Source of the DNA: an uncultured Candidatus Saccharibacteria bacterium
GTDB lineage: Bacteria > Patescibacteriota > Doudnabacteria > UBA920
Length of the DNA: 58,516 bases
Direction: 5' to 3'
Assembly (NCBI GenBank): GCA_964484145.1
Contig: CAZAED010000003.1
Span: forward strand, 1-58,516
Under the pieces are notes generated by a model, which did no database searches, was not told the origin of the DNA, and worked only from the letters and a program-made list of their open reading frames with translations. How positions within the stretch are numbered: position 1 is the stretch's first letter; every line of letters begins with the position of its first letter. The position numbers were made by a program, and so were the translations under genes. This document shows positions 3,304 through 58,089 of this stretch, piece after piece.

Positions 3304-3621
3304 ATGAACAAACTCAGAATTAAAAAAGGCGATACAGTAAAAGTGCTTTCCGGCAAAGACAAAGGCAAAACCGGCAAGGTTATTTCGGTAATGCCAAAAC
3401 TTGGTAAGGTTGTTGTAGAAAACGCCAATATGCATACTCGTTTTGAAAAGGCTAAAAAAGCCGGCGAGAAAGGTAAAAAAGTTACTTTTTCTTCCCCTAT
3501 GCAAATTTCGAAAGTCCAGTTAATAGATCCGCATTCAGGTAATCCAACAAGAGTAAACTATACTTTTTTAGAAAACGGTAACAAGCAAAGAACAGCTAAG
3601 GCCAGTGGAAAGGCAGTATAA
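3304..3621 (+). CDS. rplX: 50S ribosomal protein L24
   Basis: KOW motif KKGDTVKVLSGKDKGKTGKV; operon order. Confidence 0.94.
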   Translation: MNKLRIKKGDTVKVLSGKDKGKTGKVISVMPKLGKVVVENANMHTRFEKAKKAGEKGKKVTFSSPMQISKVQLIDPHSGNPTRVNYTFLENGNKQRTAKASGKAV

Positions 3622-3693
3622 TGTACGGAAGTACAGATAATACGGATCATGTGGATCTGTAAAATCTGTAAGATCCGTAATTCTGTAAATTAT
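3622..3693 (+). repeat. ~70-nt hairpin repeat, copy 1 of 3 (GTACGGAAGTACAGATAATACGGATCAT...GGATCTGTAAAATCTGTAAGATCCGTAATTCTGTA)
   Basis: Near-identical to 4234-4304 and 4977-5051. Confidence 0.92.
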
Positions 3694-4233
3694 ATGGAAA
3701 GATTACAAGAAAAATATAATAAGGAAATTGTTAAAGCTTTGAAAGAAAAGTTTGGCTTTAAGAATGTAATGGAAGTACCAAGAATTTTGAAAGTTGTTAT
3801 TAATGTGGGCGTTGGAAAAATTAAGGAAGATAAGAAGCGTATAGATTTAGTAGTTGAAGATATTGCCAAAATTGCAGGACAGGCTCCGGTAAAGAATTTG
3901 TCCCGCAAGTCTATTTCAGGTTTTAAAGTAAGACAAAACCAAATTGTAGGTTTAAGTGTTACTTTAAGAGGATATAGAATGTATAGCTTTTTAGACAAGT
4001 TGGTCAATGTGGCCTTACCAAGAGTAAGAGATTTCCAGGGTATAAGCAAAAAAGGTTTCGACGGCCGTGGTAATTATCACTTGGGAATGAAAGAGCAAAT
4101 AGTTTTTCCGGAAGTTTCTCCGGATTCTCTAGAAAATATATTCGGCTTGGAAATTTCGGTAGTCACCAACGCTAAAAGAGACGATACAGCATATGAACTT
4201 TTAAAATTAATGAAATTCCCGTTTAAAGATTAA
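3694..4233 (+). CDS. rplE: 50S ribosomal protein L5
   Basis: The L5 sequence begins at MERLQEKYNKEIV. The 15 upstream codons of the tracked ORF (from 3649) read through the intergenic repeat. NLSRKSISGFKVR and RDFQG motifs are present. Confidence 0.93.
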   Translation: MERLQEKYNKEIVKALKEKFGFKNVMEVPRILKVVINVGVGKIKEDKKRIDLVVEDIAKIAGQAPVKNLSRKSISGFKVRQNQIVGLSVTLRGYRMYSFLDKLVNVALPRVRDFQGISKKGFDGRGNYHLGMKEQIVFPEVSPDSLENIFGLEISVVTNAKRDDTAYELLKLMKFPFKD

Positions 4234-4304
4234 TGTACGGAAGTACAGATAGTACGGATCATAGGGATCTGTAAAATCTGTAGAATCCGTAATTCTGTAA
4301 ATTT
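4234..4304 (+). repeat. ~70-nt hairpin repeat, copy 2 of 3
   Basis: Differs from copy 1 at a handful of positions. Confidence 0.92.
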
Positions 4305-4499
4305 ATGGCTACAGTAGCACACATTGTCAGAGCAAAACGAAGTAGAACCAAGGCAAAATTTTCCAGTAGGATAATTCGCCGTTGTTTTCGCTGCGGTAGA
4401 AAAGCTGCTTATATTCGAGATTTTGACCTTTGTAGAATTTGTTTTAGAGAATTAGCCAGTAAGGGAGAAATCCCTGGTGTTTCAAAAGCTTCCTGGTAA
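4305..4499 (+). CDS. rpsN: 30S ribosomal protein S14, zinc-binding type Z
   Basis: 64 aa, CxxC...CxxC (CFRCGR...CRICFRE), ends in W; operon order. Confidence 0.94.
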
Positions 4500-4583: not shown

Positions 4584-4976
4584 ATGTATACAGACCCAAT
4601 CTCAGACATGCTAACCAGAATCCGCAACGCGTTGTCCGCAAAAAAGGATGACCTTGTTTTGCCATATTCAAAGTTTAAAAAGAACTTGGCGGATTTGCTG
4701 ATGCAAGAGGGTTTTGTGGCCGGAGTAAACGAATTAGAAGGTGACCATAAAATGCTCCAAATAAATTTAAAATATTCAGGCGCGGGCGAACCGGTAATTG
4801 CAGGAATAAAGCGCGTAAGTAAACCGGGGCAGAGAATTTATTTGTCTAAAGACAGCTTGCCTAGAACTAACAGCGGCCTTGGTCTTACTGTAGTTTCTAC
4901 TTCTAAAGGTTTAATGTCAGACAGAAAAGCAAGAAAAGAAAAAGTTGGCGGAGAAGTAATATGCCAGGTTTGGTAA
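4584..4976 (+). CDS. rpsH: 30S ribosomal protein S8
   Basis: DPISDMLTRIRNA N-terminus and GGEVICQVW C-terminus. Confidence 0.96.
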   Translation: MYTDPISDMLTRIRNALSAKKDDLVLPYSKFKKNLADLLMQEGFVAGVNELEGDHKMLQINLKYSGAGEPVIAGIKRVSKPGQRIYLSKDSLPRTNSGLGLTVVSTSKGLMSDRKARKEKVGGEVICQVW

Positions 4977-5051
4977 TTAACGTACGGAAGTACAGATAAT
5001 ACGGATCATACGGATCTGTAAAATCTGTAGAATCCGTAATTCAGTATATTT
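4977..5051 (+). repeat. ~70-nt hairpin repeat, copy 3 of 3
   Basis: Same sequence family as copies 1 and 2, between rpsH and rplF. Confidence 0.92.
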
Positions 5052-5606
5052 ATGTCAAGAATTGGAAAAAAACCCATAAGCATTCCTAGCGGAGTAAAGG
5101 TAGAAAAAACTGCCGGTCTTTTAAAGGTGTCCGGTCCGAAAGGTAATTTGCAGCAGGAGATTCATCCGCTTGTAACTGTTAATATTGTAGAAAACGAAGT
5201 TACTGTTGATGTTGTAAAGAAAGAAGACAAAAAACAGAGAGCATTGTGGGGTTTGTTCCGCTCTTTAGTTTTTAATATGATAGAAGGTGTTACAAAAGGT
5301 TTTGAAAAAAAGCTCGAAGTAAATGGCGTAGGCTTTAAGGTAGCATCTCAACCTGGTAAAATAGTTATGTCCTTGGGTTTTTCTCACCCGGTTGAAGTTA
5401 CGGTTCCAAAAGATTTACAGGCTGTTGTAGAAAAGAACTTAATTACTATTACCGGAGCAGACAAACAGAGAGTTGGACAATTTGCAGCTGAAATTAGAGA
5501 GTTGAAAAAACCTGAGCCGTATAAAGGTAAAGGTATTAAATATATAGACGAAGTTATTGTTAAGAAAGCGGGTAAAGTGGTTAAAGTAGTTGGTGGAGGC
5601 AAGTAA
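5052..5606 (+). CDS. rplF: 50S ribosomal protein L6
   Basis: MSRIGKKPI-IP-GV and PEPYKGKGI-Y motifs. Confidence 0.96.
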   Translation: MSRIGKKPISIPSGVKVEKTAGLLKVSGPKGNLQQEIHPLVTVNIVENEVTVDVVKKEDKKQRALWGLFRSLVFNMIEGVTKGFEKKLEVNGVGFKVASQPGKIVMSLGFSHPVEVTVPKDLQAVVEKNLITITGADKQRVGQFAAEIRELKKPEPYKGKGIKYIDEVIVKKAGKVVKVVGGGK

Positions 5607-5687
5607 ATATAAAATTTAGGATATAAGATGTAAAATGTTAGAGCTTAGTATATCCTAAATCCTAAATCATAAACCCTATATTTTTTT
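5604..5687 (+). repeat. stop-to-start word-hairpin, family B, second copy
   Basis: The first ~30 nt are essentially identical to 921-950. The 3' block is G-poor (TATCCTAAATCCTAAATCATAAACCC). Confidence 0.88.
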
Positions 5688-7166: not shown

Positions 7167-8456
7167 ATGAATAAAATCTTACTTATTTGGAAAACCAAGG
7201 ACTTGCGCAATAAAATTTTAATTGTGCTAGGTCTTTTGTTAATTACCCGTGTTTTAACCCATGTTCCTATTCCCGGTATTGACCCAACCGGACTTAAGGC
7301 TTTCTTTCAGAATAGCCAGTTTTTGAATTTACTTGATGTTTTTTCCGGTGGTGGTTTAACGAATTTTTCCATAGCTATGCTCGGCGTAGGTCCTTATATT
7401 ACGGCCAGTATTATTATGCAGCTTCTTACTATAATAATACCGAGTTTTGCAGAAATGCAAAAAGAAGGTGGGGAAGCAGGAAGAGCTCAGCTTAACCAGT
7501 ATACCCGATATTTAACTATTCCTTTAGCACCGCTTCAGGCTTTTGGCACAATTAGACTTCTTTCCAGCCAAGGTGCCGGTGCGATTTTAGGCAGTTTTTC
7601 ACCATTTCAATGGTTCTTGGTTTTGCTTTCAGTAACTGCTGGTACCATGCTGATAATGTGGATAGGCGAAATAATGTCTGAATTTGATATTGGAAATGGT
7701 ATTTCTTTGGTAATTTTTGCTGGTATTGTAGCAAGGGTTCCAAGCGCTATTTCACAGGCCTATCAAATCTATCAGGGTAATCCAAATGCCGTTCCAACTT
7801 TGGTTGGGTTCGTATTAGTATTTCTTGCTGTAATTGCTGGTGTTGTGCTGGTTACTGAGGCACAAAGAAATATTCCTGTGGCGTACGCAAAACGTGTGCG
7901 TGGTAACAGACTTTTTGGTGGCGTTAATACCCATTTGCCCTTAAGACTTAACCAAGCAGGAGTTATTCCAATAATTTTTGCAATTTCTATAATGCTTTTT
8001 CCGGCTATGATAGCGCAGTTTTTTGTGAACGCAAAAAGCGCTCTTATTGCTAATTATGCGCAAAAGATTATTGCCTTATTTAATGACACAGGTACATGGT
8101 TTTACGGTATTATATACTTTGTTATGATATTAGGTTTTACTTATTTCTATACCGCGGTTGTATTTAACCCTGAAGAAATTGCGGAAAATGTGCAAAAAAA
8201 TGGTGGTTTTATACCAGGACTAAGACCCGGAGCTCAGACCGCAGACTACTTGTCTTCTGTGCTAAACCGTATTACTTTAGCCGGCGCTGTATTCTTGGCT
8301 ATAATTGCTATTTTGCCGCTTGTTGCTCAAAATTTAACCGACACTAAAGCCTTAACCCTAGGCGGCACATCTCTCTTAATTGTGGTGTCCGTAGTTATTG
8401 AAATTATAAAGAAAATAGAAGCCCAGTTAACCATGCATGATTACGAAGGCTTTTAG
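7167..8456 (+). CDS. secY: preprotein translocase subunit SecY
   Basis: Ten-TM profile with SecY motifs (GVGPYITASIIMQLL, GGFIPG-RPG). The ATG at 7167 is preferred over the upstream GTG at 7149, which lies inside the intergenic repeat. Confidence 0.94.
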   Translation: MNKILLIWKTKDLRNKILIVLGLLLITRVLTHVPIPGIDPTGLKAFFQNSQFLNLLDVFSGGGLTNFSIAMLGVGPYITASIIMQLLTIIIPSFAEMQKEGGEAGRAQLNQYTRYLTIPLAPLQAFGTIRLLSSQGAGAILGSFSPFQWFLVLLSVTAGTMLIMWIGEIMSEFDIGNGISLVIFAGIVARVPSAISQAYQIYQGNPNAVPTLVGFVLVFLAVIAGVVLVTEAQRNIPVAYAKRVRGNRLFGGVNTHLPLRLNQAGVIPIIFAISIMLFPAMIAQFFVNAKSALIANYAQKIIALFNDTGTWFYGIIYFVMILGFTYFYTAVVFNPEEIAENVQKNGGFIPGLRPGAQTADYLSSVLNRITLAGAVFLAIIAILPLVAQNLTDTKALTLGGTSLLIVVSVVIEIIKKIEAQLTMHDYEGF

Positions 8457-13156: not shown

Positions 13157-13205
13157 CGCGCCGATTTATCGGCCAGCTAAGGACGCCCATAAATGGGCAC
13201 GCTAC
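13153..13205 (+). repeat. two-hairpin element, copy 1, overlapping stop codon of the ATPase gene
   Basis: The outer pair is GTAGCG...CGCTAC. It encloses hairpins GCCGAT-TT-ATCGGC and GCCCAT-AA-ATGGGC. The TAG stop is at 13154-13156. Confidence 0.88.
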
Positions 13206-13240
13206 GCATAGGTCAGAGATGAAATAAATAAGTCAAAGGC

Positions 13241-18741: not shown

Positions 18742-20022
18742 ATGGAAAATCCTTCAGAAATAAAGGAATTTGAAAATTCTAATCCTGCTCCGGAGCATAA
18801 AGTTACCGAAACAAAACAAGTTCCGCCCCACCACCATAATTCGCTTTTTGTGGTGGTTATTGTTTTAAGTTTGTTGTTTGGCTCAATTGGAGGTTCGGCT
18901 AGTACAATGTTTTTAATAAAAAACGGCAAGCTAATAGGAACGGACAAAACTGGTATTCTAAGTAGTAAAAAAGTTACTCTACAAGAAGATTCTGCAATTA
19001 TAGATGTAGTTAAGAAATCCAGACCGGCTGTAGTTTCTATAGTTATAAGTAAAGATTTAAGTAAATTGCCGGGTTATGGAATGAACCCGTTTGGTAACGA
19101 CTTCTTTTCTCCAATTTTTGGTTTTCCTTCTTCTGGTAATAATTCGGGCGGACCCGATGTTCAGCAAGTTGGAGCAGGAAGCGGATTTTTTGTTTCAGCC
19201 GACGGACTTATTTTAACTAACAGGCATGTGGTGGAAGATACCTCGGCTAGTTATACGGTTTTAACTAATGACGGCAAAAAATACGACGCCACTGTTTTAG
19301 CGCGCGACCCTGTTAATGACTTAGCAATTGTAAAAATAGATATTAAGGACGCGGCATTTTTACAACTTTCAGATTCGTCTAAATTGGAGGTGGGTCAGCA
19401 CGTGGTAGCTATTGGTAATGCTTTGGGTGAATATCAGAATTCGGTAACTAGCGGTATAGTTAGCGGTATTGGCCGCAGTATAACCGCAGGCGGAGAAAGT
19501 GGTAGTGAGAGTTTAGAAGGTGTTATTCAAACAGATGCGGCCATAAACCCCGGTAATAGCGGAGGACCGCTTTTAGATTTAGATGGGCAAGTGGTAGGCA
19601 TAAACACAGCCGTTGACCAACAAGGTCAATTGGTAGGTTTTGCTATACCTTCAAACGACGCGCAAAAAGATTTAACCAGCTTTCAAAAAAACGGTAAAAT
19701 TAGCAGGCCAATGTTAGGGGTTAGATATATTATGATAACCCAGGCTTTGGCAGACAGCCAAAAATTACCCCGTTCTTACGGCGCTTTAGTTGTAAGAGGT
19801 GAAAAGGTAACAGATTTTTCTGTTTTGCCCGGCAGTCCCGCGGACAAAGCCGGAATAGTTGAGAACGATATTATTTTAGCAGTCGGCGGAGTTAAAGTAG
19901 ACGGTGAAAATACTTTAGCCAAGCTTTTAAAACCGTTTAATACCGGGGACGAGATTACTTTAAAAATTTATCATAAAGGGGACGAGAAGACTATTAAGGT
20001 GAAGCTTGAGGATAGCAAGTAA
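18742..20022 (+). CDS. htrA: HtrA/DegP-family serine protease with PDZ domain
   Basis: Catalytic-triad contexts TNRHVV, DLAIVK and GNSGGPL, plus a C-terminal PDZ-like region. Confidence 0.9.
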   Translation: MENPSEIKEFENSNPAPEHKVTETKQVPPHHHNSLFVVVIVLSLLFGSIGGSASTMFLIKNGKLIGTDKTGILSSKKVTLQEDSAIIDVVKKSRPAVVSIVISKDLSKLPGYGMNPFGNDFFSPIFGFPSSGNNSGGPDVQQVGAGSGFFVSADGLILTNRHVVEDTSASYTVLTNDGKKYDATVLARDPVNDLAIVKIDIKDAAFLQLSDSSKLEVGQHVVAIGNALGEYQNSVTSGIVSGIGRSITAGGESGSESLEGVIQTDAAINPGNSGGPLLDLDGQVVGINTAVDQQGQLVGFAIPSNDAQKDLTSFQKNGKISRPMLGVRYIMITQALADSQKLPRSYGALVVRGEKVTDFSVLPGSPADKAGIVENDIILAVGGVKVDGENTLAKLLKPFNTGDEITLKIYHKGDEKTIKVKLEDSK

Positions 20023-20075: not shown

Positions 20076-20462
20076 ATGTCTAAAACCCTAGGGATCGACT
20101 ATGGCACAAAGAGGATTGGTTTGGCGATTTCTGATGAGTCGCAGACTTTTGCGCGGGAGCTTAGTATACTTTCACCAAAGGAGTTTTGGGATAAAATCTT
20201 GGCTATTATTGAAGAACATCAGATTACCCAAATCGTCCTTGGTTGGCCGCTTAATATGAGTGGGGAAATGACTAAAAAAACCAAAGAAGTGGAAAATTTT
20301 AAACAGAAATTAGAGAAAATGGTGGAAATTAAAGTGGTAATTATAGACGAGCGTTTATCATCGACTTTTGCTCAAAACATCAGCGGCAGTAAAAAAAACT
20401 TAGACAGCTTCGCTGCACAAATATTACTTCAAAATTATTTGAATAAACAAAAAACTAAATGA
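20076..20462 (+). CDS. ruvX: Holliday junction resolvase-like RuvX/YqgF
   Basis: LGIDYGTKRIGLAISD N-terminus, DERLSS motif, ~130 aa. Confidence 0.88.
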   Translation: MSKTLGIDYGTKRIGLAISDESQTFARELSILSPKEFWDKILAIIEEHQITQIVLGWPLNMSGEMTKKTKEVENFKQKLEKMVEIKVVIIDERLSSTFAQNISGSKKNLDSFAAQILLQNYLNKQKTK

Positions 20463-22697: not shown

Positions 22698-22748
22698 TGC
22701 GCCGATTTATCGGCCATTATCAGCAAGGCCCATAAATGGGCACGCTAC
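22694..22748 (+). repeat. two-hairpin element, copy 2, overlapping tpiA stop codon
   Basis: GTAGTGCGCCGATTTATCGGCC...GGCCCATAAATGGGCACGCTAC, with the TAG stop at 22695-22697. The C-to-T change in the outer stem keeps pairing as G-U. Confidence 0.88.
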
Positions 22749-22757
22749 ACATACAAT

Positions 22758-36373: not shown

Positions 36374-36445
36374 TTGGTAGTAAATAGTAGGTAGTAAGTA
36401 GCCTGCATGACTACCAACTACCCACTACCAACTACTTACTAACCT
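36374..36445 (+). repeat. word-hairpin, family H (GGTAGTAAGTAG / CTACTTACTACC-type)
   Basis: A C-free 5' arm faces a G-free 3' arm, ACTACCAACTACCCACTACCAACTACTTACTAACC. Confidence 0.88.
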
Positions 36446-38161: not shown

Positions 38162-38240
38162 TTTAAGCATATAAACATCTAAGCATACAAGCATGCGAAG
38201 TTACTTCTATGATTAAATGCTTTAATGTTTATATGTTTTA
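38162..38240 (+). repeat. word-hairpin (AAGCATATAAACAT / ATGTTTATATG)
   Basis: AAGCATATAAACATCTAAGCAT faces ATGCTTTAATGTTTATATGTTTT. Confidence 0.8.
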
Positions 38241-42296: not shown

Positions 42297-42327
42297 TAAG
42301 TAACCTTTGGTAATTGACAACATTGAT

Positions 42328-42355
42328 TTGACATTCTGACTAAAGGTGGTAAACT
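42328..42355 (+). promoter_or_regulatory. sigma70-like promoter with extended -10
   Basis: TTGACA-16 nt (ending in TGG)-TAAACT. Confidence 0.5.
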
Positions 42356-42363
42356 AGCTATAA

Positions 42364-42604
42364 TAAAATATTATAAAGCACTAAACATTCGGCCTCGCAC
42401 GCCGAAACGCTGGCAGGGGAATATCTTGCACGGTCAGCCTACGCCGTAGAAATAGGTAAAAAGAGTTCGCTATTGTTGTCTGATCGCCTATTAATCGGCA
42501 CGCTACAACATAAGTGAAAATCGAGGTGGTACCGCGGAAGCGATAATATATCGTAAACCCGACCTTGAAAACAATTTTTTGTTTTTGGGGACGGGTTTTT
42601 GTTT
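42364..42604 (+). promoter_or_regulatory. T-box-like transcription-attenuation leader
   Basis: GAGGTGGTACCGCGG at 42523-42537 matches the T-box core GGGTGGNACCGCG. The flanks UCGAGG and CCUUGA can close an antiterminator around a UGGUACC bulge. CCUUGA is also part of the 5' strand of the terminator at 42555-42598. Confidence 0.5.
42555..42604 (+). terminator. intrinsic terminator of the leader
   Basis: AAACCCGACCTTGAAAACA...TGTTTTTGGGGACGGGTTT followed by TTGTTT. Confidence 0.7.
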
Positions 42605-42634
42605 GGAAAATCTATAATTAGGGAGAAGGGATAA

Positions 42635-42901
42635 ATGTGGCATCATCATAAGGAGCCGCTGAGGGTGGGACTCTTTGGGTATGATTGGAGAGATAGAATT
42701 GTTCAGGAATTGGCAAGAGTTAGGGGGCATCAGGTTATTTGGATTGCCCATATCCACCAGGCAGGGATTGTTTTGGACTTTTTATTGGACGACCCGCCGG
42801 ACATCCTAGTTGTCCACCCTTTAGCGCGTGTTAATTTCCCTCTGCTATTGTCCCCCCAGGCGGTAGTAGTAATCGGCCCGTCTCGGGCCAAAACAAGGTG
42901 A
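42635..42901 (+). CDS. orphan 88-aa protein in high-GC island 1
   Basis: Strong RBS GGGAGAAGGG at 42621-42630, four nt before the ATG. An intrinsic terminator lies directly downstream. Composition is R/P/W/H-rich, unlike the neighbouring genes. Confidence 0.55.
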   Translation: MWHHHKEPLRVGLFGYDWRDRIVQELARVRGHQVIWIAHIHQAGIVLDFLLDDPPDILVVHPLARVNFPLLLSPQAVVVIGPSRAKTR

Positions 42902-42909
42902 CGCAAAGG

Positions 42910-42955
42910 GCGCCGTGAAGGGTTATTATGTACCCGCGCGGCGCTTGTTTTTGTT
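42910..42955 (+). terminator. intrinsic terminator after island-1 ORF
   Basis: GCGCCG...CGGCGC stem followed by TTGTTTTTGTT. Confidence 0.75.
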
Positions 42956-42982
42956 GACATAAGGTGAACTATCGTTTACTAT
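42954..42982 (+). promoter_or_regulatory. sigma70-like promoter for dinB
   Basis: TTGACA-17 nt-TACTAT. Confidence 0.5.
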
Positions 42983-43098
42983 AATATTATGAAACGAACT
43001 GGATCCTGGATATTTTTGCGGCCTTAGATGATCCTAAGCGTAAAAAATTCCGGGATAACAAAGGTGAGTTAATTGTTAATCGTAAATTGTTAATTGTT

Positions 43099-45339: not shown

Positions 45340-47013
45340 ATGATCATAAATATTTTACTTGTCGTTGATTTTATTATTCTTGCCATTGTTGTAACATGGT
45401 ATGTTTTTCGTTCGCTAAAAGAGCGCGATGTTTTAAGAAAACGCTTAAGCCAGAGCTTGCAGCTGCAGCAAAAAGTCTACCAAGCGCAGGTTTTAAAAGA
45501 AATTAGCGAACGTATTGGTTATAGTTTAGACACAAACAAGGTGGTAGAAATTATTACCAACTCTTTAGGTAATTTGCTGGAATACGACACGGTTTCGTAT
45601 ATGGTTTTGTCGGAAGACCATAAGGTAGTTTTTAAATGCCATGTGGAAAATACGGTTAACCATGAATTTACTTCGGAAGTTAAAGAAAAAATGCTAGCAG
45701 CTTTTTCCGCTATTTTAAACGAAGAAATAAAACCTCAAAAAATTGACGAAAGCATAACGGGAAATATTTTAGACGACAATATAAATGTTGTGGTTAAATC
45801 GTATTTTAATTTACCTGTGGTTATTGGTGAAAAATTAATTGGGCTTATAAACGTAGCTTCTTCGGAAGCAGGTCGCTATGGCGACGAGCAGGCTTCTATT
45901 TTATATACCATAACTAACCAAGCGGCTACTGCTGTAACTAAACTGCAGGCGGTTTTACATTCGGAAAAAGGCAAGCTTGAGGCTGTTATAGACTCTATTG
46001 CAGACGGAATTATTAACGTGGATTTAAACCATCAACTTTTAATTGCTAATCCGGCGGTTAAAGAAATTTTAGAAATAAACAACTTAAAGCCCGGAGAGGC
46101 TCTTACTATGTTCGACATAGTAGACGCACTTGCAGGTAAAACCGACCTTAGGACTAAAATTGACCAGGCTTTAAGCGAAGACAAAGCAATTTTTGTGCCT
46201 GACGTTGTTTTAAAAAACAAAGCTTTAGAAATTACCATTACTCCAGTTAAAACAGAAAAAAATGAAAAAATTGGCACTAACGTAGTTTTTCATGACATTA
46301 CTACTGAAAAATCTTTAGAAAAACTTCGTCAGGAATTTACTGCTATGATGGTGCACGAACTACGCGCGCCTCTAACCGCGGTTCGCTGGTCAAGCGAGTC
46401 AATGATAAAAACCTTAGCCGCTGCACAAGGCACGGACCCAGGCAAGCTTAAGGACACCTTTTTAACTATAGAAACAGCGTCGAACAATATGCTCGAGTTA
46501 GTTAACGACTTGCTAGATGTAGCAAAAATAGAAGCCGGTAAATTTGAGCTAAACATTCAAGACTACGATTTAGTAGAAACTTTAAAGCAGCAAGTTGAGG
46601 CATTTAAACCCCAGGCCGAAGCTAAGCATTTAACAATTAAATTTACTTCCCCGGAAAAGTTTAAATGTAAGTTTGACCGAGTGCGCGTGGCTCAGGTTTT
46701 GGGTAATTTAATAAGCAATGCTATAAAATATAGTGACGCAGGTGAAATTTCGGTAAATATTAACCCGGAAACAAATGCTAAGCGAGTTGTAATTGGCGTA
46801 AAAGACAACGGTATAGGAATATCGCCGGAAGATTTGCCTGTACTGTTTTCTAAGTTTAAGCAGCTTAAAAGCGGCGACAGAAGCCGTAAAGGAACTGGCC
46901 TTGGTTTGGTGGTGACTAAAGGTATAGTCGAATCTCATGGCGGTCAGGTTTGGGTAGAGAGCCAGGGGGAAAATTTAGGTTCAACATTCTACTTTTCTTT
47001 GCCGACGGAGTAA
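45340..47013 (+). CDS. sensor histidine kinase (TM-GAF-PAS-HisKA-HATPase)
   Basis: H-box MVHELRAPLT, N-box LISNAIKY, G-boxes DNGIGI and GTGLGL. Confidence 0.92.
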   Translation: MIINILLVVDFIILAIVVTWYVFRSLKERDVLRKRLSQSLQLQQKVYQAQVLKEISERIGYSLDTNKVVEIITNSLGNLLEYDTVSYMVLSEDHKVVFKCHVENTVNHEFTSEVKEKMLAAFSAILNEEIKPQKIDESITGNILDDNINVVVKSYFNLPVVIGEKLIGLINVASSEAGRYGDEQASILYTITNQAATAVTKLQAVLHSEKGKLEAVIDSIADGIINVDLNHQLLIANPAVKEILEINNLKPGEALTMFDIVDALAGKTDLRTKIDQALSEDKAIFVPDVVLKNKALEITITPVKTEKNEKIGTNVVFHDITTEKSLEKLRQEFTAMMVHELRAPLTAVRWSSESMIKTLAAAQGTDPGKLKDTFLTIETASNNMLELVNDLLDVAKIEAGKFELNIQDYDLVETLKQQVEAFKPQAEAKHLTIKFTSPEKFKCKFDRVRVAQVLGNLISNAIKYSDAGEISVNINPETNAKRVVIGVKDNGIGISPEDLPVLFSKFKQLKSGDRSRKGTGLGLVVTKGIVESHGGQVWVESQGENLGSTFYFSLPTE

Positions 47014-47017
47014 TAAT

Positions 47018-47192
47018 ATTGACAAAATCGACAGAATTGACAAAATTAGGGGGCAACTGCGGTGGAATTATGTCAATTATTTAATTATTCCCGCCTGCCA
47101 AAATTAGTCTGTTTTACATCGCCGACTTATGATTATCAATAATCTTTTATAAGATAAAGATTTGGCGGGCCGGTAAATTTTGTTCAATCCTG
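47018..47192 (+). repeat. ~175-nt dispersed structured element, copy A
   Basis: Aligns along its length with 55308-55491 with only scattered substitutions. It has a family-E hairpin, then a long-range stem CCCGCCTGCCAAA / TTTGGCGGGCCGG enclosing about 55 nt. Confidence 0.9.
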
Positions 47193-47263
47193 TTTTTTCT
47201 GCTATTATATTACTAACTAATCCCCTTAATTAAGGGAAAAATTTATAAAATAATATATTTTTT

Positions 47264-47647
47264 ATGGTAAAAATACTTGTTGCTGAGGACGATAAACTTA
47301 TTTCCGCGTCTTTATGCGATGCCTTAAAGCAAAATGGTTATGAAGCCACTCCTGCCTACGACGGCGAGGAAGCTGTTGCAAAGGCAAAGGAGCTTAAGCC
47401 CGATTTGCTACTTTTAGACATAATGATGCCAAAACTAGATGGCATTTCGGTTTTATGGGAATTAAAAAGCAATGAAGAAACAAAAAAAGTTGCGGTGGTG
47501 GTTTTAACTAATATGGGTGATATGGAAACTATTAGTAAAATTTTAGAAGCTGGTGCTACTGACTATTTACTTAAGAGCGACCAGTCCATAGACGAAGTTA
47601 TGAAAAAGGTAAGAGATGTGTTAAGTAGGGACGTAAAGCTAAGCTAA
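47264..47647 (+). CDS. single-domain response regulator (CheY-like receiver)
   Basis: ILVAEDD, LLLLDIMMP and LTN-G motifs plus the conserved K context. No output domain. Confidence 0.92.
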   Translation: MVKILVAEDDKLISASLCDALKQNGYEATPAYDGEEAVAKAKELKPDLLLLDIMMPKLDGISVLWELKSNEETKKVAVVVLTNMGDMETISKILEAGATDYLLKSDQSIDEVMKKVRDVLSRDVKLS

Positions 47648-48885: not shown

Positions 48886-49431
48886 ATGGACACTTTAGCC
48901 CACGGACTTTGGAGTAATATTATTGTTTATAAAAAGTACCCACAGAACAGCAAAATGCGCTGGGTGGCAGTGGCTTTTGGTATGCTGCCTGACTTAATTC
49001 CTTTCGCTCCTTTGTTTATTTATACTTTTTTAACCGGCAGGTTTGGCGGGCCTGAAAACTGGAACTTTAACCACTGGTCTTTAAACTGGGCGCCTTTTGC
49101 CTACAACTATACTCATTCGCTGGTAATTTTTGCTTTTACAGCTTTTTGTGTAGCACTGTATAGGAAAATCAAATACAAAGCCCAAGGTTTTAATTTGTTT
49201 TACTTTCCGATGCTTGCGTGGGGCTTTCATATTTTGCTAGACATGCCAACTCACCCGAATTTTTACAATACCCCGTTTTTGTTCCCAATTTCAGACTACA
49301 AATTAAGTTGGGGTCTTAGTTGGGGGCATTGGGCAATTTTAATTCCGCAATATGTCTTTTTTGCGGTTTGGTACAGCTGGTGGTTCCTACAGAAACGTAA
49401 AAAATCGACAAATCCTATGAGTAATAGTTAG
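48886..49431 (+). CDS. hypothetical membrane protein (possibly YdjM/DUF457-like)
   Basis: MDTLAHGLW start, His-containing TM segments. The family guess is weak. Confidence 0.6.
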   Translation: MDTLAHGLWSNIIVYKKYPQNSKMRWVAVAFGMLPDLIPFAPLFIYTFLTGRFGGPENWNFNHWSLNWAPFAYNYTHSLVIFAFTAFCVALYRKIKYKAQGFNLFYFPMLAWGFHILLDMPTHPNFYNTPFLFPISDYKLSWGLSWGHWAILIPQYVFFAVWYSWWFLQKRKKSTNPMSNS

Positions 49432-49516
49432 GTAATTCTACAGAAAACTACAGAATCTAAAAACAAAGTTTTGTGGCGCGATTCTGTAGTTTTCTGTAGT
49501 GTATTTATGTTGTTGT
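49432..49516 (+). repeat. word-hairpin, family K (CTACAGAA / TTCTGTAG)
   Basis: ATTCTACAGAAAACTACAGAATC faces GATTCTGTAGTTTTCTGTAG. Confidence 0.88.
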
Positions 49517-51316: not shown

Positions 51317-51521
51317 AGATGTTTAAAAGTGGTATTTGGTGGGAAAAAGTGGGGAATATGGTGGAAAACCCCCAGTACCAGTCGCTACGACATAAATGTC
51401 GGCTCCGGTACGGGGCGCTACGCGAACTAAAACATCTTAAATTTGTAGTCATTTTTGGCTTCCAGCCCTGGCTTTTTAAGAAAACCGGGGCTGGTCTCTC
51501 CTTTAAAAAGACACGGTTAAT
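51317..51521 (+). promoter_or_regulatory. ~200-nt GC-rich structured leader of mraZ
   Basis: A G-tract region at 51338-51368, hairpin 51370-51415 (CCCC-A-GTACC.../GGTACGGGG with inner CGACA-TAAA-TGTCG), and a 10-bp hairpin 51462-51494 (CCAGCCCTGG / CCGGGGCTGG). Confidence 0.6.
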
Positions 51522-52974: not shown

Positions 52975-53081
52975 CTGATTATTGATAATTAATAACTTAT
53001 AACATCCGCCAAAAGCTCAAAAGGGAGCATTTAGGCGGATCCGCCTCTGGCGGAAAAAACCAAAATAAAAACAAAAAATAT

Positions 53082-53450: not shown

Positions 53451-53452
53451 TA

Positions 53453-53563
53453 TTCACGGATAGACGAATTACACTGATGACACAGATACTATGATAAAAC
53501 GGGTTCATAGATGGGGTTGTAATAAGAATCTGTGGAATTTGTGGTATCCGTGTATTTGTGAAT
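53453..53563 (+). repeat. word-hairpin, family G
   Basis: TTCACGGATAGACGAATTACACTGATGACACAGATACT faces GAATCTGTGGAATTTGTGGTATCCGTGTATTTGTGAAT. Confidence 0.88.
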
Positions 53564-53571
53564 AATAATCT

Positions 53572-55311
53572 ATGGCGCTACGAAAAATAAAAAATCCATT
53601 AGACACAAGAAGCAGTTTATTGGCTGCTTTTTTTATACTGTGTTTTTTTGTAATTTTACTTCGGTTGGCTAATTTGCAAATTTTGCACGGCTCAGAAAAC
53701 AAAAGCAAGGCGGAGTCACAAAGAAATATGGTATTAAAGCTTTTGCCTACCAGAGGTGAAATAAACTTAGTTGAAAGTTCAACGCAGCAACTTTTGCCGG
53801 TAGCTACCAACATAGAAAAACCTTTGGTTTATGGTGTGCCCGCGGATGTGCAAAATCCGGTTTTAGCTGCCGCAAGCCTTTCTGCAATTTTAAATGTAGA
53901 TCAAAATGAGTTGTTAACTAAGTTAGCTAACAAGCAAAAAAAATATGTAGTTTTAAAAAAACAGTTAAGCGAGGAAGAAGTAAATAAAATTAAGGAGCTT
54001 AAATTAAGCGGTATTTTTTTTGACGGCGAAGGTTTTAGGTTATACCCGCAAGGCAATTTGCTCTCGCAGGTTTTGGGTTTTGTAGGGTATAAAGGCGACA
54101 CAAAGCAAGGGGTTTATGGTCTTGAAAGTTATTTTGAAAGCGAACTTTCCGGCAAAGAAGGTCTGCTTAAGCAAGAAGGTGATATAAGCGGCGCTTGGAT
54201 ATTTGGTGGAAACAGGCAAATAGAGGAAGCTAAAGATGGCGACTCTTTAATTTTAACTATAGACAAAAATATTCAGTACGAAGCGCAGAAAGTTTTAAAA
54301 GACACTGTTGAAAAAAATGAAGCTGACAGCGGAACCGTAATTATTGCGGACCCAAAAACCGGCAAAATTTTAGCCATGGCTGGGTTTCCGGATTTTGACC
54401 CAAACAAATTTAACGAAGTAACCGACCCCGCTGCCTTTAACAACGAAGCCACGAGCGGCGTGTATGAACCGGGTAGCGTGTTTAAACCTTTAACCATGGC
54501 CGCGGCAATAAACGAAGGTAAAATTACACCGGACACCACTTTTGTAGACGAAGGGTTTGTTAAAATAGACGACAAAACCATAAAGAATTCAGACCCAAAG
54601 CCTAGAGGATTGCAAACAATGACTCAGGCGTTAGAGGAGTCTTTAAACACAGGTTTAATATTTGCCAAAGACCAAATCGGTAACCAAAAGTTTTTAGAAT
54701 ATGTAAAGCGTTTTGGTTTTGGCGAAAAAACCGGTATTGAATTAATGGAAAAGAAGGGGAATTTAGACAACTTAAAAGCAAATATTAATGTAAACTATGC
54801 GACTGCAAGTTTTGGTCAGGGTTTAACAGTAACGCCTATTCAGCTAATACAAGCTTTTTCGGTTTTTTCTAATAGCGGAAAAATGATAAAACCCTATATT
54901 GTGGCAAGTAAAATTTCACCCGAGGGGCAAAGGAAAGACATAAAACCTACTGTGGTTAGGGAAGTAATTTCTCCTCAGACCGCTAATACAGTTACCGCAA
55001 TGATGGTAAATGTAGTAGAAAATGGCCATGGCAAAAGAGCCGGGGTGCCCGGGTACTATATTGCAGGTAAAACTGGCACAGCTCAAGTGTCGAGACAAAA
55101 TGGTCTTGGTTATGAAGAGAATGTTAACATTGGTACCTTTATAGGTTTTGGACCGGTGGAAGACCCGAGATTTTTAATGCTGGTTCGTGTAGACAAACCT
55201 AAGACGGTCAAGTTCGCGGAAAGTACGGCTGCGCCGGCTTTTGGACAACTTGCACAGTATCTTTTAAACTATTATCAGGTACCACCGACAAGAGAAATAA
55301 AGAAGAAATGA
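53572..55311 (+). CDS. ftsI: penicillin-binding protein (FtsI/PBP2-type transpeptidase)
   Basis: TM anchor, PBP dimerisation region, SVFKP (SxxK), SLN (SxN-like) and KTGTA motifs. Confidence 0.9.
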   Translation: MALRKIKNPLDTRSSLLAAFFILCFFVILLRLANLQILHGSENKSKAESQRNMVLKLLPTRGEINLVESSTQQLLPVATNIEKPLVYGVPADVQNPVLAAASLSAILNVDQNELLTKLANKQKKYVVLKKQLSEEEVNKIKELKLSGIFFDGEGFRLYPQGNLLSQVLGFVGYKGDTKQGVYGLESYFESELSGKEGLLKQEGDISGAWIFGGNRQIEEAKDGDSLILTIDKNIQYEAQKVLKDTVEKNEADSGTVIIADPKTGKILAMAGFPDFDPNKFNEVTDPAAFNNEATSGVYEPGSVFKPLTMAAAINEGKITPDTTFVDEGFVKIDDKTIKNSDPKPRGLQTMTQALEESLNTGLIFAKDQIGNQKFLEYVKRFGFGEKTGIELMEKKGNLDNLKANINVNYATASFGQGLTVTPIQLIQAFSVFSNSGKMIKPYIVASKISPEGQRKDIKPTVVREVISPQTANTVTAMMVNVVENGHGKRAGVPGYYIAGKTGTAQVSRQNGLGYEENVNIGTFIGFGPVEDPRFLMLVRVDKPKTVKFAESTAAPAFGQLAQYLLNYYQVPPTREIKKK

Positions 55312-55491
55312 CAAAATTGACATAATCGACGGAATTGACAAAATTAGGGGCACAACTGCAGTGTAATTATGTCAATTTTTTAAATTATTCCCGCCTGCCA
55401 AAATTAGTCTTTTTACATCGCCGACTTATGACTATCAATAATCTTTTATAAGATAAACATTTGGCGGGCAGGTAAATTTTGTCTATTCTGG
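55308..55491 (+). repeat. ~175-nt dispersed structured element, copy B (includes ftsI stop codon)
   Basis: See copy A. The loop carries CTGCAG at 55356-55361. The stem is CCCGCCTGCCAAA / TTTGGCGGGCAGG. Confidence 0.9.
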
Positions 55492-55555: not shown

Positions 55556-56545
55556 GTGCCTCAAAAAATATTTAAACAACACGTTGAATTACATTCCCAT
55601 TTGGGTTCAGCCGTACATCCTTCCATACTGTGGGCAATTTCCCATAGGCAAGGTATAAAACTTCCTACTAAAAGCTATTGGGAGTTTGAAGATATGATAA
55701 CTATGACGGGGGAAGAAAAAAATAAAAATCTTGACCAAATGGACAAGAATTTTTTTCATTGGACAGAGCTTATTCAGTCTTCGCCGGAAGCTATAGAAGA
55801 GTCGGTTAAAGGCACTATTGCCGGCGGGTTTAGAAAAAGTAATATTGTACTACACGAACTTAGGTTTAACCCTATGAAACGTAACCGCGGGGGCGAGAGG
55901 GATTTAGACCATATTATTTTTTCCGGACTTTGGGGCGCGCAAAAAGCAACTTTGGAATACCCTCAGGTGAAAGCGGGAATAATTTTAATGATGGGCAGAA
56001 GTTTAAGCTTTAGTCAGAACGAAATTATTACTAGCAAAGCTATAAAATATAAGCACGAAGGCATAATTGGTCTAGATATTGCAGACCCTGAAAGAAAAAC
56101 TTTTTCTATGAAAAAGCATAAGGTCTTGTTTGAAAGAGCCAGAGAAGCGGGTCTTGGTGTTACAATACATACCGGCGAAGCAGGTTCGCTCGATGAGCTT
56201 AAATATGTAGTAAGGGAAATAAAGCCAAACCGAATAGGGCATGGTATTTTGTGCGTAAAGGACAAAAAGCTTATGGAAGATATTGTCGCAAATAATATTA
56301 CTTTGGAAATTTGTCCTACTTCGAATCTTCGTAATAGCGTAGTTAAAAATGTTACTGAACTAAAAAATATTATTCACACTTTGTTAAAGCATAGCGTAAA
56401 GTTTACTATAAATACCGACGGTCCTGAAATGTACAAAAGCAATATTGTTCACGAAGAAGAATTTTTGTTAAAAAATGGTATACTTACCCAAACTCAGCTA
56501 GACCAATGCACCAAATGGGCATTTGAAGCCAGCTTTATAAAATAA
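55556..56545 (+). CDS. add: adenosine deaminase-family amidohydrolase
   Basis: ELHSHLGS, HTGE, GHG and TINTD motifs; GTG start. Confidence 0.82.
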   Translation: MPQKIFKQHVELHSHLGSAVHPSILWAISHRQGIKLPTKSYWEFEDMITMTGEEKNKNLDQMDKNFFHWTELIQSSPEAIEESVKGTIAGGFRKSNIVLHELRFNPMKRNRGGERDLDHIIFSGLWGAQKATLEYPQVKAGIILMMGRSLSFSQNEIITSKAIKYKHEGIIGLDIADPERKTFSMKKHKVLFERAREAGLGVTIHTGEAGSLDELKYVVREIKPNRIGHGILCVKDKKLMEDIVANNITLEICPTSNLRNSVVKNVTELKNIIHTLLKHSVKFTINTDGPEMYKSNIVHEEEFLLKNGILTQTQLDQCTKWAFEASFIK

Positions 56546-57992: not shown

Positions 57993-58089
57993 AAAAGTTT
58001 ACGAAGTACGAATGGGTACGAACATACGAATATAAGTTAGCGGCAGTTATTTTTGTTTCGTAAGTTCGTAAAATTTCGTACTTCGTAAA
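57993..58089 (-). repeat. word-hairpin, family J ((TACGAA)n / (TTCGTA)n) upstream of the EamA gene
   Basis: TACGAAGTACGAATGGGTACGAACATACGAAT faces TTTCGTAAGTTCGTAAAATTTCGTACTTCGTAAA. Same stop-to-start layout, on the minus strand. Confidence 0.88.

Follow-up and report, generated by a model that had tools for sequence, protein, structure and literature searches.

REP, BIME and REPIN elements are mobilised by RAYT transposases; their inverted pairs can enclose a spacer, they are likely to be transcribed in 3' UTRs and, in the case of REP and REPIN, they reach tens to hundreds of copies per genome alongside a RAYT gene. The REP/BIME elements of E. coli act as intercistronic terminator, insulator or 3'-end stabiliser. 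Ogata and colleagues reportedly described, in 2000, the Rickettsia palindromic elements (RPE), palindromic selfish DNA in an AT-rich reduced genome; these are said to be some 100-150 bp long, to be restricted to one genus and to occur in spacers as well as in-frame in protein genes, present or absent between orthologs. The small dispersed repeats of cyanobacteria, reportedly treated by Elhai and colleagues in 2008, and the GC clusters of yeast mitochondria, which are GC-rich islands in AT-rich spacers, are hairpin units of 20-40 nt that insert into coding and non-coding DNA and nest mutually; we know of no established mechanism for either. REPs are short, GC-rich imperfect palindromes with G.T pairs, found mostly after genes, between co-directional ORFs, and sometimes within genes, and their hallmark is a conserved terminal tetranucleotide, GTAG or CGTC, on one side (PMC3733652). 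Correia, ERIC and the Coxiella MITEs exemplify the MITEs (review PMC10969869).

We analysed a non-coding repeat in a 58,516-nucleotide stretch of DNA, hereafter the window, whose lineage according to the kinase protein that it encodes is Candidatus Doudnabacteria (CPR), from wastewater and sludge. This repeat is best read as selfish or duplicative DNA and not as an RNA gene in its own right. We consider it probable that a selfish palindrome of the REP, MITE or RPE type came to lie within an ordinary spacer hairpin and that the resulting composite was then copied to a second spacer.

Two copies of a composite repeat

The dispersed element reported in the preliminary description is a true repeat, a 166-base composite present twice in the same orientation. 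Copy A (47018..47183, + strand) lies in the spacer between a histidine kinase and a response regulator gene and copy B (55316..55482, + strand) in the spacer between ftsI and the adenosine deaminase gene (add). Their local alignment comprises 156 matches, 9 mismatches and 3 gap columns, an identity of 92.9% over 168 columns; the likeness ends at both borders, with unrelated flanks beyond. By part, the copies agree at 66/74 positions in the word-hairpin part and 82/86 in the module, both described below. Gene coordinates bear out the neighbours named before: at site A the histidine kinase occupies 45340-47013 and the response regulator 47264-47647, at site B PBP/FtsI occupies 53572-55311 and adenosine deaminase 55556-56545, where the Pfam labels of the flanking genes were taken from syntenic loci. 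An exact-product look-up of the response regulator of the window returned no record.

Among the well-conserved non-coding repeats of the window the composite is indeed the longest. Its supposed GC-richness relative to the surroundings applies only to the arms of the module; GC content is 26% in the interior and 35% in the element as a whole, compared with 38.5% in the window. Neither a third copy nor an empty-site allele was found in eight DNA metagenomes holding the organism, only A and B, and a loose end at 55384 in this search was a trivial 21-nt match. Two copies were counted, in 58 kb of genome and the contigs of the eight metagenomes.

Structure of the composite

Each copy has two parts, a word hairpin and, following it, an 86-nt module of the form CCCGCCTGCCAAA-N57/58-TTTGGCGGGC(A/C)GGTA. 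In the folds, the word hairpin of copy A (47019..47078, + strand) has a stem of 47035-47047 with 47066-47078 and that of copy B (55317..55377, + strand) a stem of 55333-55345 with 55365-55377; the order in copy A is a tandem of 9-nt words, TTGACAAAA, TCGACAGAA and TTGACAAAA, then a loop and the inverted word AATTATGTCAATT. The hairpin AATTGACAAAATT...AATTATGTCAATT described earlier is found at 47035-47078 and 55333-55377.

The GC-armed palindromic module spans 47090..47175 in copy A and 55390..55474 in copy B, both on the + strand, with scores of 92.4 and 91.5 bits under covariance model R1. In copy A the 5' arm (47090-47102, CCCGCCTGCCAAA) is followed by an AT-rich interior of 58 nt, the 3' arm (47161-47173, TTTGGCGGGCCGG) and TA; in copy B the 5' arm (55390-55402) is followed by an interior of 57 nt, the 3' arm (55460-55472, TTTGGCGGGCAGG, the consensus form) and TA. 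The arms CCCGCCTGCCAAA and TTTGGCGGGC(C/A)GG of the preliminary description could be located in both copies, whereas its interior of 55 nt is too short, and only one of the two arm positions said to vary does so, with C in A and A in B. Its 13-bp stem has 13 pairs, but 11 of these are Watson-Crick, one is U.G and one is a mismatch (C.C in A, C.A in B). The two inner hairpins belong to the minimum-energy fold of A only and are lost in homologues, whereas the GC-rich long-range arms are, as had been proposed, the conserved feature, being identical in other Doudnabacteria modules with diverged interiors.

In each copy a further inverted word behind the module closes the unit, a 166-nt composite bounded by inverted words TTGACAAAAT. 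In copy A this closing word is AATTTTGTTCAA (47176..47187, + strand), which in the minimum-energy fold pairs with TTGACAAAAT at 47019-47028 and so joins both ends. The TTGACAAAAT word is over-represented threefold in the window (38 matches vs 12 expected). AATTTTGTTCAA overlaps a promoter-like -35 element, TTGTTC at 47180-47185, separated by 17 nt from TATTAT at 47203-47208; the closest relative, L013, also has the site, and the alignment of copy A with L013 is conserved from TTTTGTTCA onwards. The arrangement TTGTTC-17-TATTAT may represent a promoter.

Other hairpins in the window

Folding of all spacers revealed that nearly every gene of the almost one-stranded window is followed by a word hairpin, composed of tandem 7-9-nt words and their inverted copies, examples being 924-1004, 4977-5051, 5607-5687, 36374-36445, 38162-38240, 49432-49498, 53451-53571 and 57993-58089. 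Each word family recurs at several spacers, for instance 3617-3695, 4229-4307 and 4976-5054, with 86-94% identity. In another Doudnabacteria MAG (L006, L009) the modules are flanked by the same TACGAAGTACGAA words that make up the hairpin at 57993-58089.

A related motif had been noted at 53004-53053. It exists, but shares with the module only a CCGCC-AAA/TTT-GGCGG flavour and goes unseen by covariance model R1; we rejected it as a member of the module family and treat it as a separate double hairpin. This structure, at 53004-53060 in the rsmH-ftsL spacer, consists of two GC-stemmed hairpins (TCCGCC..GGCGGA twice) followed by an A-run; it is kept in L013 with compensatory changes in both inner stems, and L017 and L018 are without it. 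A look-alike at 49025-49058 (family D11) was likewise discarded as a relic, being conserved YdjM-like coding sequence.

Another GC-rich motif occurs at 13157-13210, 22698-22753, 42470-42511 and possibly 51385-51440. It comprises a single or double hairpin whose loop is ATAAAT or ATTTAT (GCCGATTTATCGGC, GCCCATAAATGGGC), with ACGCTAC behind it and without an Rfam match; 13185-13210 and 22728-22753 are 96% identical, and the copy near 42486-42511 is about 69% identical. The region 42297-43086 comprises 790 nt without an ORF of at least 110 aa, has an unusually high GC content (0.44) and shows the strongest folding per base among the long spacers. It gave no Rfam match and may hold short ORFs or an unrecognised RNA.

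Orthologous spacers of close relatives

Both spacers were compared with those of five syntenic Doudnabacteria loci (L013-L016, L017, L018, L019 and L020), whose kinases are 69-91% identical. Between kinase and regulator these relatives have spacers of 50-136 nt, where the window has 250 nt; between ftsI and add they have 18-170 nt, where the window has 244 nt. The covariance model of the module found no trace of it in the five relatives, at either spacer or elsewhere in their approximately 125 kb. At site A, the hairpin of L013 also belongs to the TGACAAAAA word family but holds no module, and no clean empty site can be delimited there because the spacer has diverged; at site B it carries a hairpin from another word family, and the spacer of L017-L020 is just 18-104 nt long. 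Orthologous spacers of the relatives carry other word families, so the word hairpins turn over quickly. From this comparison the composite repeat appears to be a recent, lineage-specific insertion, missing from its closest relatives.

Modules elsewhere in Doudnabacteria

Additional copies, for which a search had been suggested, are present in other genomes. A pattern scan of one genome per species yielded three more Doudnabacteria modules, one in L002 and two, L006 and L009, in a single MAG. Their arms are identical to those of the window over 13+15 nt, the following TA included, and six of these bases (CAGGTA) lay outside the search pattern; their flanks and interiors differ, and the interiors of L002, L006, L009 and the window share only a weak GATWAT..ATCAATGC core. 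Each of the three sits in a word hairpin made of its own genome's words. The module of palsa_1336 (L006), in a Sua5-MFS spacer, is missing from relatives (L224-L229) with a 79-89% identical MFS protein, and none was found in the 112 kb of these relatives. Four of the five Doudnabacteria modules are co-oriented with the neighbouring genes, which leaves room for selection at the RNA level; that of L002 is antisense to both of its neighbours.

In Doudnabacteria, purH orthologs differ by several other in-frame GC-rich palindromic insertions (L224 18430-18510 and 6040-6110; L226 about 19750-19840 and about 20200-20300; purH of L228), one of which recurs at an intergenic site of the same genome. Because of these differences, the invasion of spacers and genes by GC-rich palindromes seems to be a trait of Doudnabacteria.

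The same arms outside the phylum

Across Doudnabacteria, Elusimicrobia, Omnitrophota and phage instances the arms recur in the same imperfect form, in which a C.A mismatch and a T.G wobble are constant. Beyond Doudnabacteria they form a core, CCCGCCTGCC-loop-GGCGGGCAGG, of 20-36 nt. In an Elusimicrobia spacer (L003) the arms enclose a 19-nt loop. A further GC hairpin (CCCCCGCC-TTT-GGCGGGGG) lies at the same locus, at 7720-7760 and its flanks, together with extended tracts of tandem words of the CTTTTCA type; since this spacer has both, the pairing of GC palindrome and word repeat is not confined to Doudnabacteria. In the LeuRS gene of Omnitrophota the arms lie in-frame: a 71-nt copy is common to the orthologs (L010 2750-2820, L012 648-718, L005 268-338), and a second copy of 27 nt (L010 2439-2465), flanked by CTGTCCT tandem words, occurs in L010 only, its ortholog L012 being without it.

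In viral contigs the hairpin CCCGCCTGCC-N0-30-GGCGGGCAGG was found in 62 instances at 52 loci. Since GC-rich 20-mers are common in GC-rich phages, four composition-matched control patterns were run, two of perfect complement, one shuffled perfect hairpin and one shuffled imperfect hairpin. The controls hit 30-43 loci each, so that the raw count of the core hairpin is only about 1.5-fold above them; the signal resides in the low-GC, multi-copy and in-frame subsets. Contigs below 50% GC held 14 instances (controls 0-3), lengths were multiples of three in 52/62 (controls 3-33%), and nine loci were multi-copy (controls 0). About 13 of the phage loci represent one clade of related phages, and an apparent enrichment of a protein family near the hairpins was dismissed, as it only reflects that clade of about 13 related contigs. 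The lengths of the phage hairpins are nearly always multiples of three even where they are apparently intergenic.

Many phage instances are in-frame within long ORFs that encode true phage proteins (portal, large terminase and one that is YQBQ-like), and inside coding sequences the arms occur in either orientation. A 27-nt insertion in the portal gene is present in L043 (4994-5020), L059, L038 and L052 and absent from the ortholog of L053 (about 656-670). Nesting is also seen, with a 27-nt unit within the loop of a 33-nt unit (L032 and L062 vs L068) and no target duplication. Phage contigs may hold the hairpin two or three times each, L057, L029, L069, L030 and L061 being among the loci listed. 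In eight phage loci no transposase was found among the best 25 of 39 Pfam families.

Variant copies carry the paired changes CTCGCC..GGCGAG and CCTGTC..GACAGG, which fit two overlapping 6-bp helices and not a 10-bp register. The two offset helices, CCCGCC/GGCGGG and CCTGCC/GGCAGG, are each backed by such compensatory double changes, which suggests that an offset double helix may be the recognised structure.

RNA features and rival explanations

The preliminary description had seen in the repeat a small RNA or regulatory module. It lacks an Rfam match, a terminator, covariation and an association with particular genes, and it is absent in relatives, which does not favour that proposal. Rfam gave nothing in the window at gathering thresholds and nothing at the modules of L002, L006 and L009 at E<=1; the window is also devoid of genes for tRNA and tmRNA. 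Compared with shuffled sequences the folding is weak (z of -1.2 for A and -2.4 for B), and the centroid structures retain little. The stem shows no covariation, 12/13 pairs being invariant and one never paired, although the homologues were found with exact-arm patterns, which biases towards invariance and makes it partly an artefact. No substitution breaking the 13-pair stem, which the preliminary description would have taken as a refutation, was seen among homologues, where exact-arm retrieval would have hidden one. The single arm substitution between A and B sits at the already mismatched position, and the substitutions between the copies are otherwise uninformative or disruptive, one in copy B breaking the central palindrome GATTAT/ATAATC. 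Terminator activity between the kinase and regulator genes, as had been envisaged, is not favoured by the scan of both spacers, in which no terminator-like site was found; the stem has a loop of 57-58 nt and the tail UAAAUUUUGU, without a U-run. The TTGACA...CAAAAT promoter-like match at the 5' end of both copies coincides with the repeated TTGACAAAA word, at a frequency no higher than in shuffles. A small ORF was rejected because indels break the conservation of frame between the copies, whose frames differ, and a riboswitch or leader because the genes downstream of the Doudnabacteria modules have nothing in common.

We regard it as rather unlikely that the element is a cis-acting RNA under selection, with stem and word hairpin serving as an intercistronic terminator, insulator or 3'-end stabiliser that breaks the coupling of kinase with regulator and of ftsI with add. 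Each copy stands between co-directional genes, right after the stop codon; copy A precedes the promoter-like site shared with L013, and the co-orientation of 4/5 modules fits as well. The stem is the most stable feature in these AT-rich spacers, and conservation is much higher in the arms than in the interior. Set against this are the missing U-run and terminator-like site, the weak z-scores without covariation, the antisense module of L002, the broken GATTAT/ATAATC palindrome of copy B and the arms in coding sequences in either orientation; moreover, all relatives examined lack the element at these spacers, where ordinary hairpins suffice. A role of this kind would be compatible with a selfish origin through later use of the element, and any RNA role, such as 3'-end stabilisation, would be secondary. 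That the element is a small RNA gene of about 100-180 nt, transcribed on its own and present as two paralogs, is scarcely credible to us. The closing stem, the good conservation of the copies and the promoter-like match at their 5' ends would suit such a gene, but the match is the TTGACAAAA word and does not exceed shuffles, no terminator or Rfam family accompanies it, no inner structure is kept among homologues, relatives are without the element, and no contig over it was obtained from one shallow RNA run, a look-up for the 10-kb region listing no RNA run.

The arms could also be a DNA site for a protein, such as operator half-sites, an attC- or dif-like recombination site or a nucleoid or segregation site, given that they are strictly conserved, with fixed asymmetry, while the spacer between them varies. 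Their distance ranges from 0 to 60 nt, though, and is ill-suited to a dimer on duplex DNA; they lack the AAC/GTT of the integron attC core sites (RYYYAAC / GTTRRRY), reading GCCAAAN / NTTTGGC; and they are flanked by syntenic housekeeping genes and not by cassettes, are sporadic among relatives and are found inside phage structural genes. We find a protein site very improbable, and attC, dif and operator were rejected on core sequence, variable spacing and context. A plain local duplication or gene conversion of the spacer, with coincidental likeness of the arms elsewhere, would suit the extent of the duplication, which takes in the entire composite up to its outer inverted words, and other word hairpins in the window are multi-copy too. 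It would leave to chance the identity of the arms over 13+15 nt at three other Doudnabacteria loci, six bases beyond the search pattern included, as well as the same mismatch and wobble asymmetry everywhere, and according to the controls the low-GC, multi-copy and in-frame features are specific to the pattern. This explanation is in our opinion very unlikely.

Relation to described elements

By analogy, composite and module would behave like REP/REPIN, MITE and RPE, and we file them with the small palindromic selfish repeats as a group, because the defining features of REP (the GTAG or CGTC tag, a high copy number) and of MITE (a target duplication) were not found and because the sequence is absent both from a text search with arm 10-mers and from a REP survey paper. 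In that search the 10-mers gave unrelated eukaryotic matches only, and the survey paper is without these strings.

As in REP, the core elsewhere is a GC-rich imperfect palindrome of 20-40 nt, the arms in the window being 57-58 nt apart, and formally it can be read as a tagged REP, a 6-bp hairpin with a flanking tetranucleotide (CCCG or CAGG). Unlike in REP, there is no GTAG or CGTC tag, the module ending ...CCCGCC and ...GGCAGG-TA; two copies are seen here and the core occurs in phage structural genes and across phyla; and the arms of Doudnabacteria enclose an AT-rich interior of 57-60 nt. With MITEs the element shares its non-coding nature, its length of 85-175 nt, an AT-rich inside, terminal inverted repeats (the 13-nt arms), a hairpin fold and its presence or absence among relatives. 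It differs from them in its very low copy number, in the fixed asymmetry of the inverted repeats of the module, in lacking a target-site duplication and, apparently, in lacking a parent insertion sequence with matching ends; no direct repeat flanks A, B, L002, L006 or L009.

The likeness to RPE lies in the in-frame core palindrome that is present or absent between orthologs, in LeuRS (L010 vs L012) and in the portal gene (L043 vs L053). The element in the window, in contrast, is only intergenic, the in-frame cases being those of L010, L043, L026, L046 and L069, and it is presumably unrelated to RPEs in sequence. Small hairpin units, insertion and nesting are also features of small dispersed repeats and GC clusters, but sequences and hosts differ.

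Proposed origin and implications

Judged from sequence comparison, the following observations carry the selfish or duplicative reading. The module is absent at the orthologous sites of close relatives while its arms, with fixed mismatch and wobble, cross lineages, and the core palindrome exhibits clean presence/absence differences and nesting. Several points speak against a selfish element. Two copies per genome are seen, far below typical REP or MITE families; target-site duplications are absent; and no transposase or RAYT was identified in the 58 kb of genome or among the best 25 of 39 Pfam families of the eight phage loci. What was duplicated here is the composite of 166 nt and not the module alone, so that mobility of the module in this genome is inferred from other genomes. 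The diverged spacer of L013 at site A, the co-orientation of 4/5 modules, the modest raw excess in viral contigs and the retrieval of homologues by exact arms also count against it.

We propose the following layers. The outer one would be the word hairpin, probably 3'-end or terminator-like, drawn from multi-copy families, with the 86-nt palindromic module nested in its 3' half. The arms CCCGCCTGCCAAA / TTTGGCGGGCAGG with TA would be the conserved, recognised part, and the AT-rich interior would drift. These arms would belong to a family of small GC-rich palindromes, with the core CCCGCCTGCC-loop-GGCGGGCAGG, that inserts into spacers and, in-frame, into genes of several phyla and phages. In the most parsimonious history the module would have entered the hairpin of the kinase-regulator spacer in the lineage of the window, and the whole 166-nt composite would then have been copied to the ftsI-add spacer, replacing the resident hairpin. 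The mover may have been a putative trans-acting, hairpin-recognising enzyme (HUH/RAYT-like), or copying may have been templated between hairpins. If transcribed, the element would add a strong stem between cistrons as REP does, a by-product of its presence.

A broader reading is possible, which we put forward tentatively. The arms may define an undescribed family of mobile GC-rich palindromes of very small size (20-36 nt core) that crosses phyla, travels with phages and has reached the genomes of CPR, Omnitrophota and Elusimicrobia. Its members would insert into spacer hairpins and in-frame into essential genes, would be recognised not as a simple hairpin but as two overlapping 6-bp helices offset by 4 nt, and would be mobilised by a putative hairpin-specific enzyme; the 86-nt module would be a long-loop derivative.

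For the annotation of the window, the selfish or duplicative reading means one attractive small-RNA or regulator candidate fewer. More widely, AT-rich reduced CPR genomes would appear to be colonised by GC-rich palindromes in spacers and genes, much as Rickettsia is by RPEs. The exact imperfect arms of one palindrome are common to phage structural genes and other phyla, and it is this spread over phyla and phages that merits further study. If the family is truly mobile, it would be among the smallest mobile DNA units known, would provide a handle on the mobilising enzyme, possibly a phage-borne one, and could be used to trace how DNA passes between phages and bacteria that are uncultivated.
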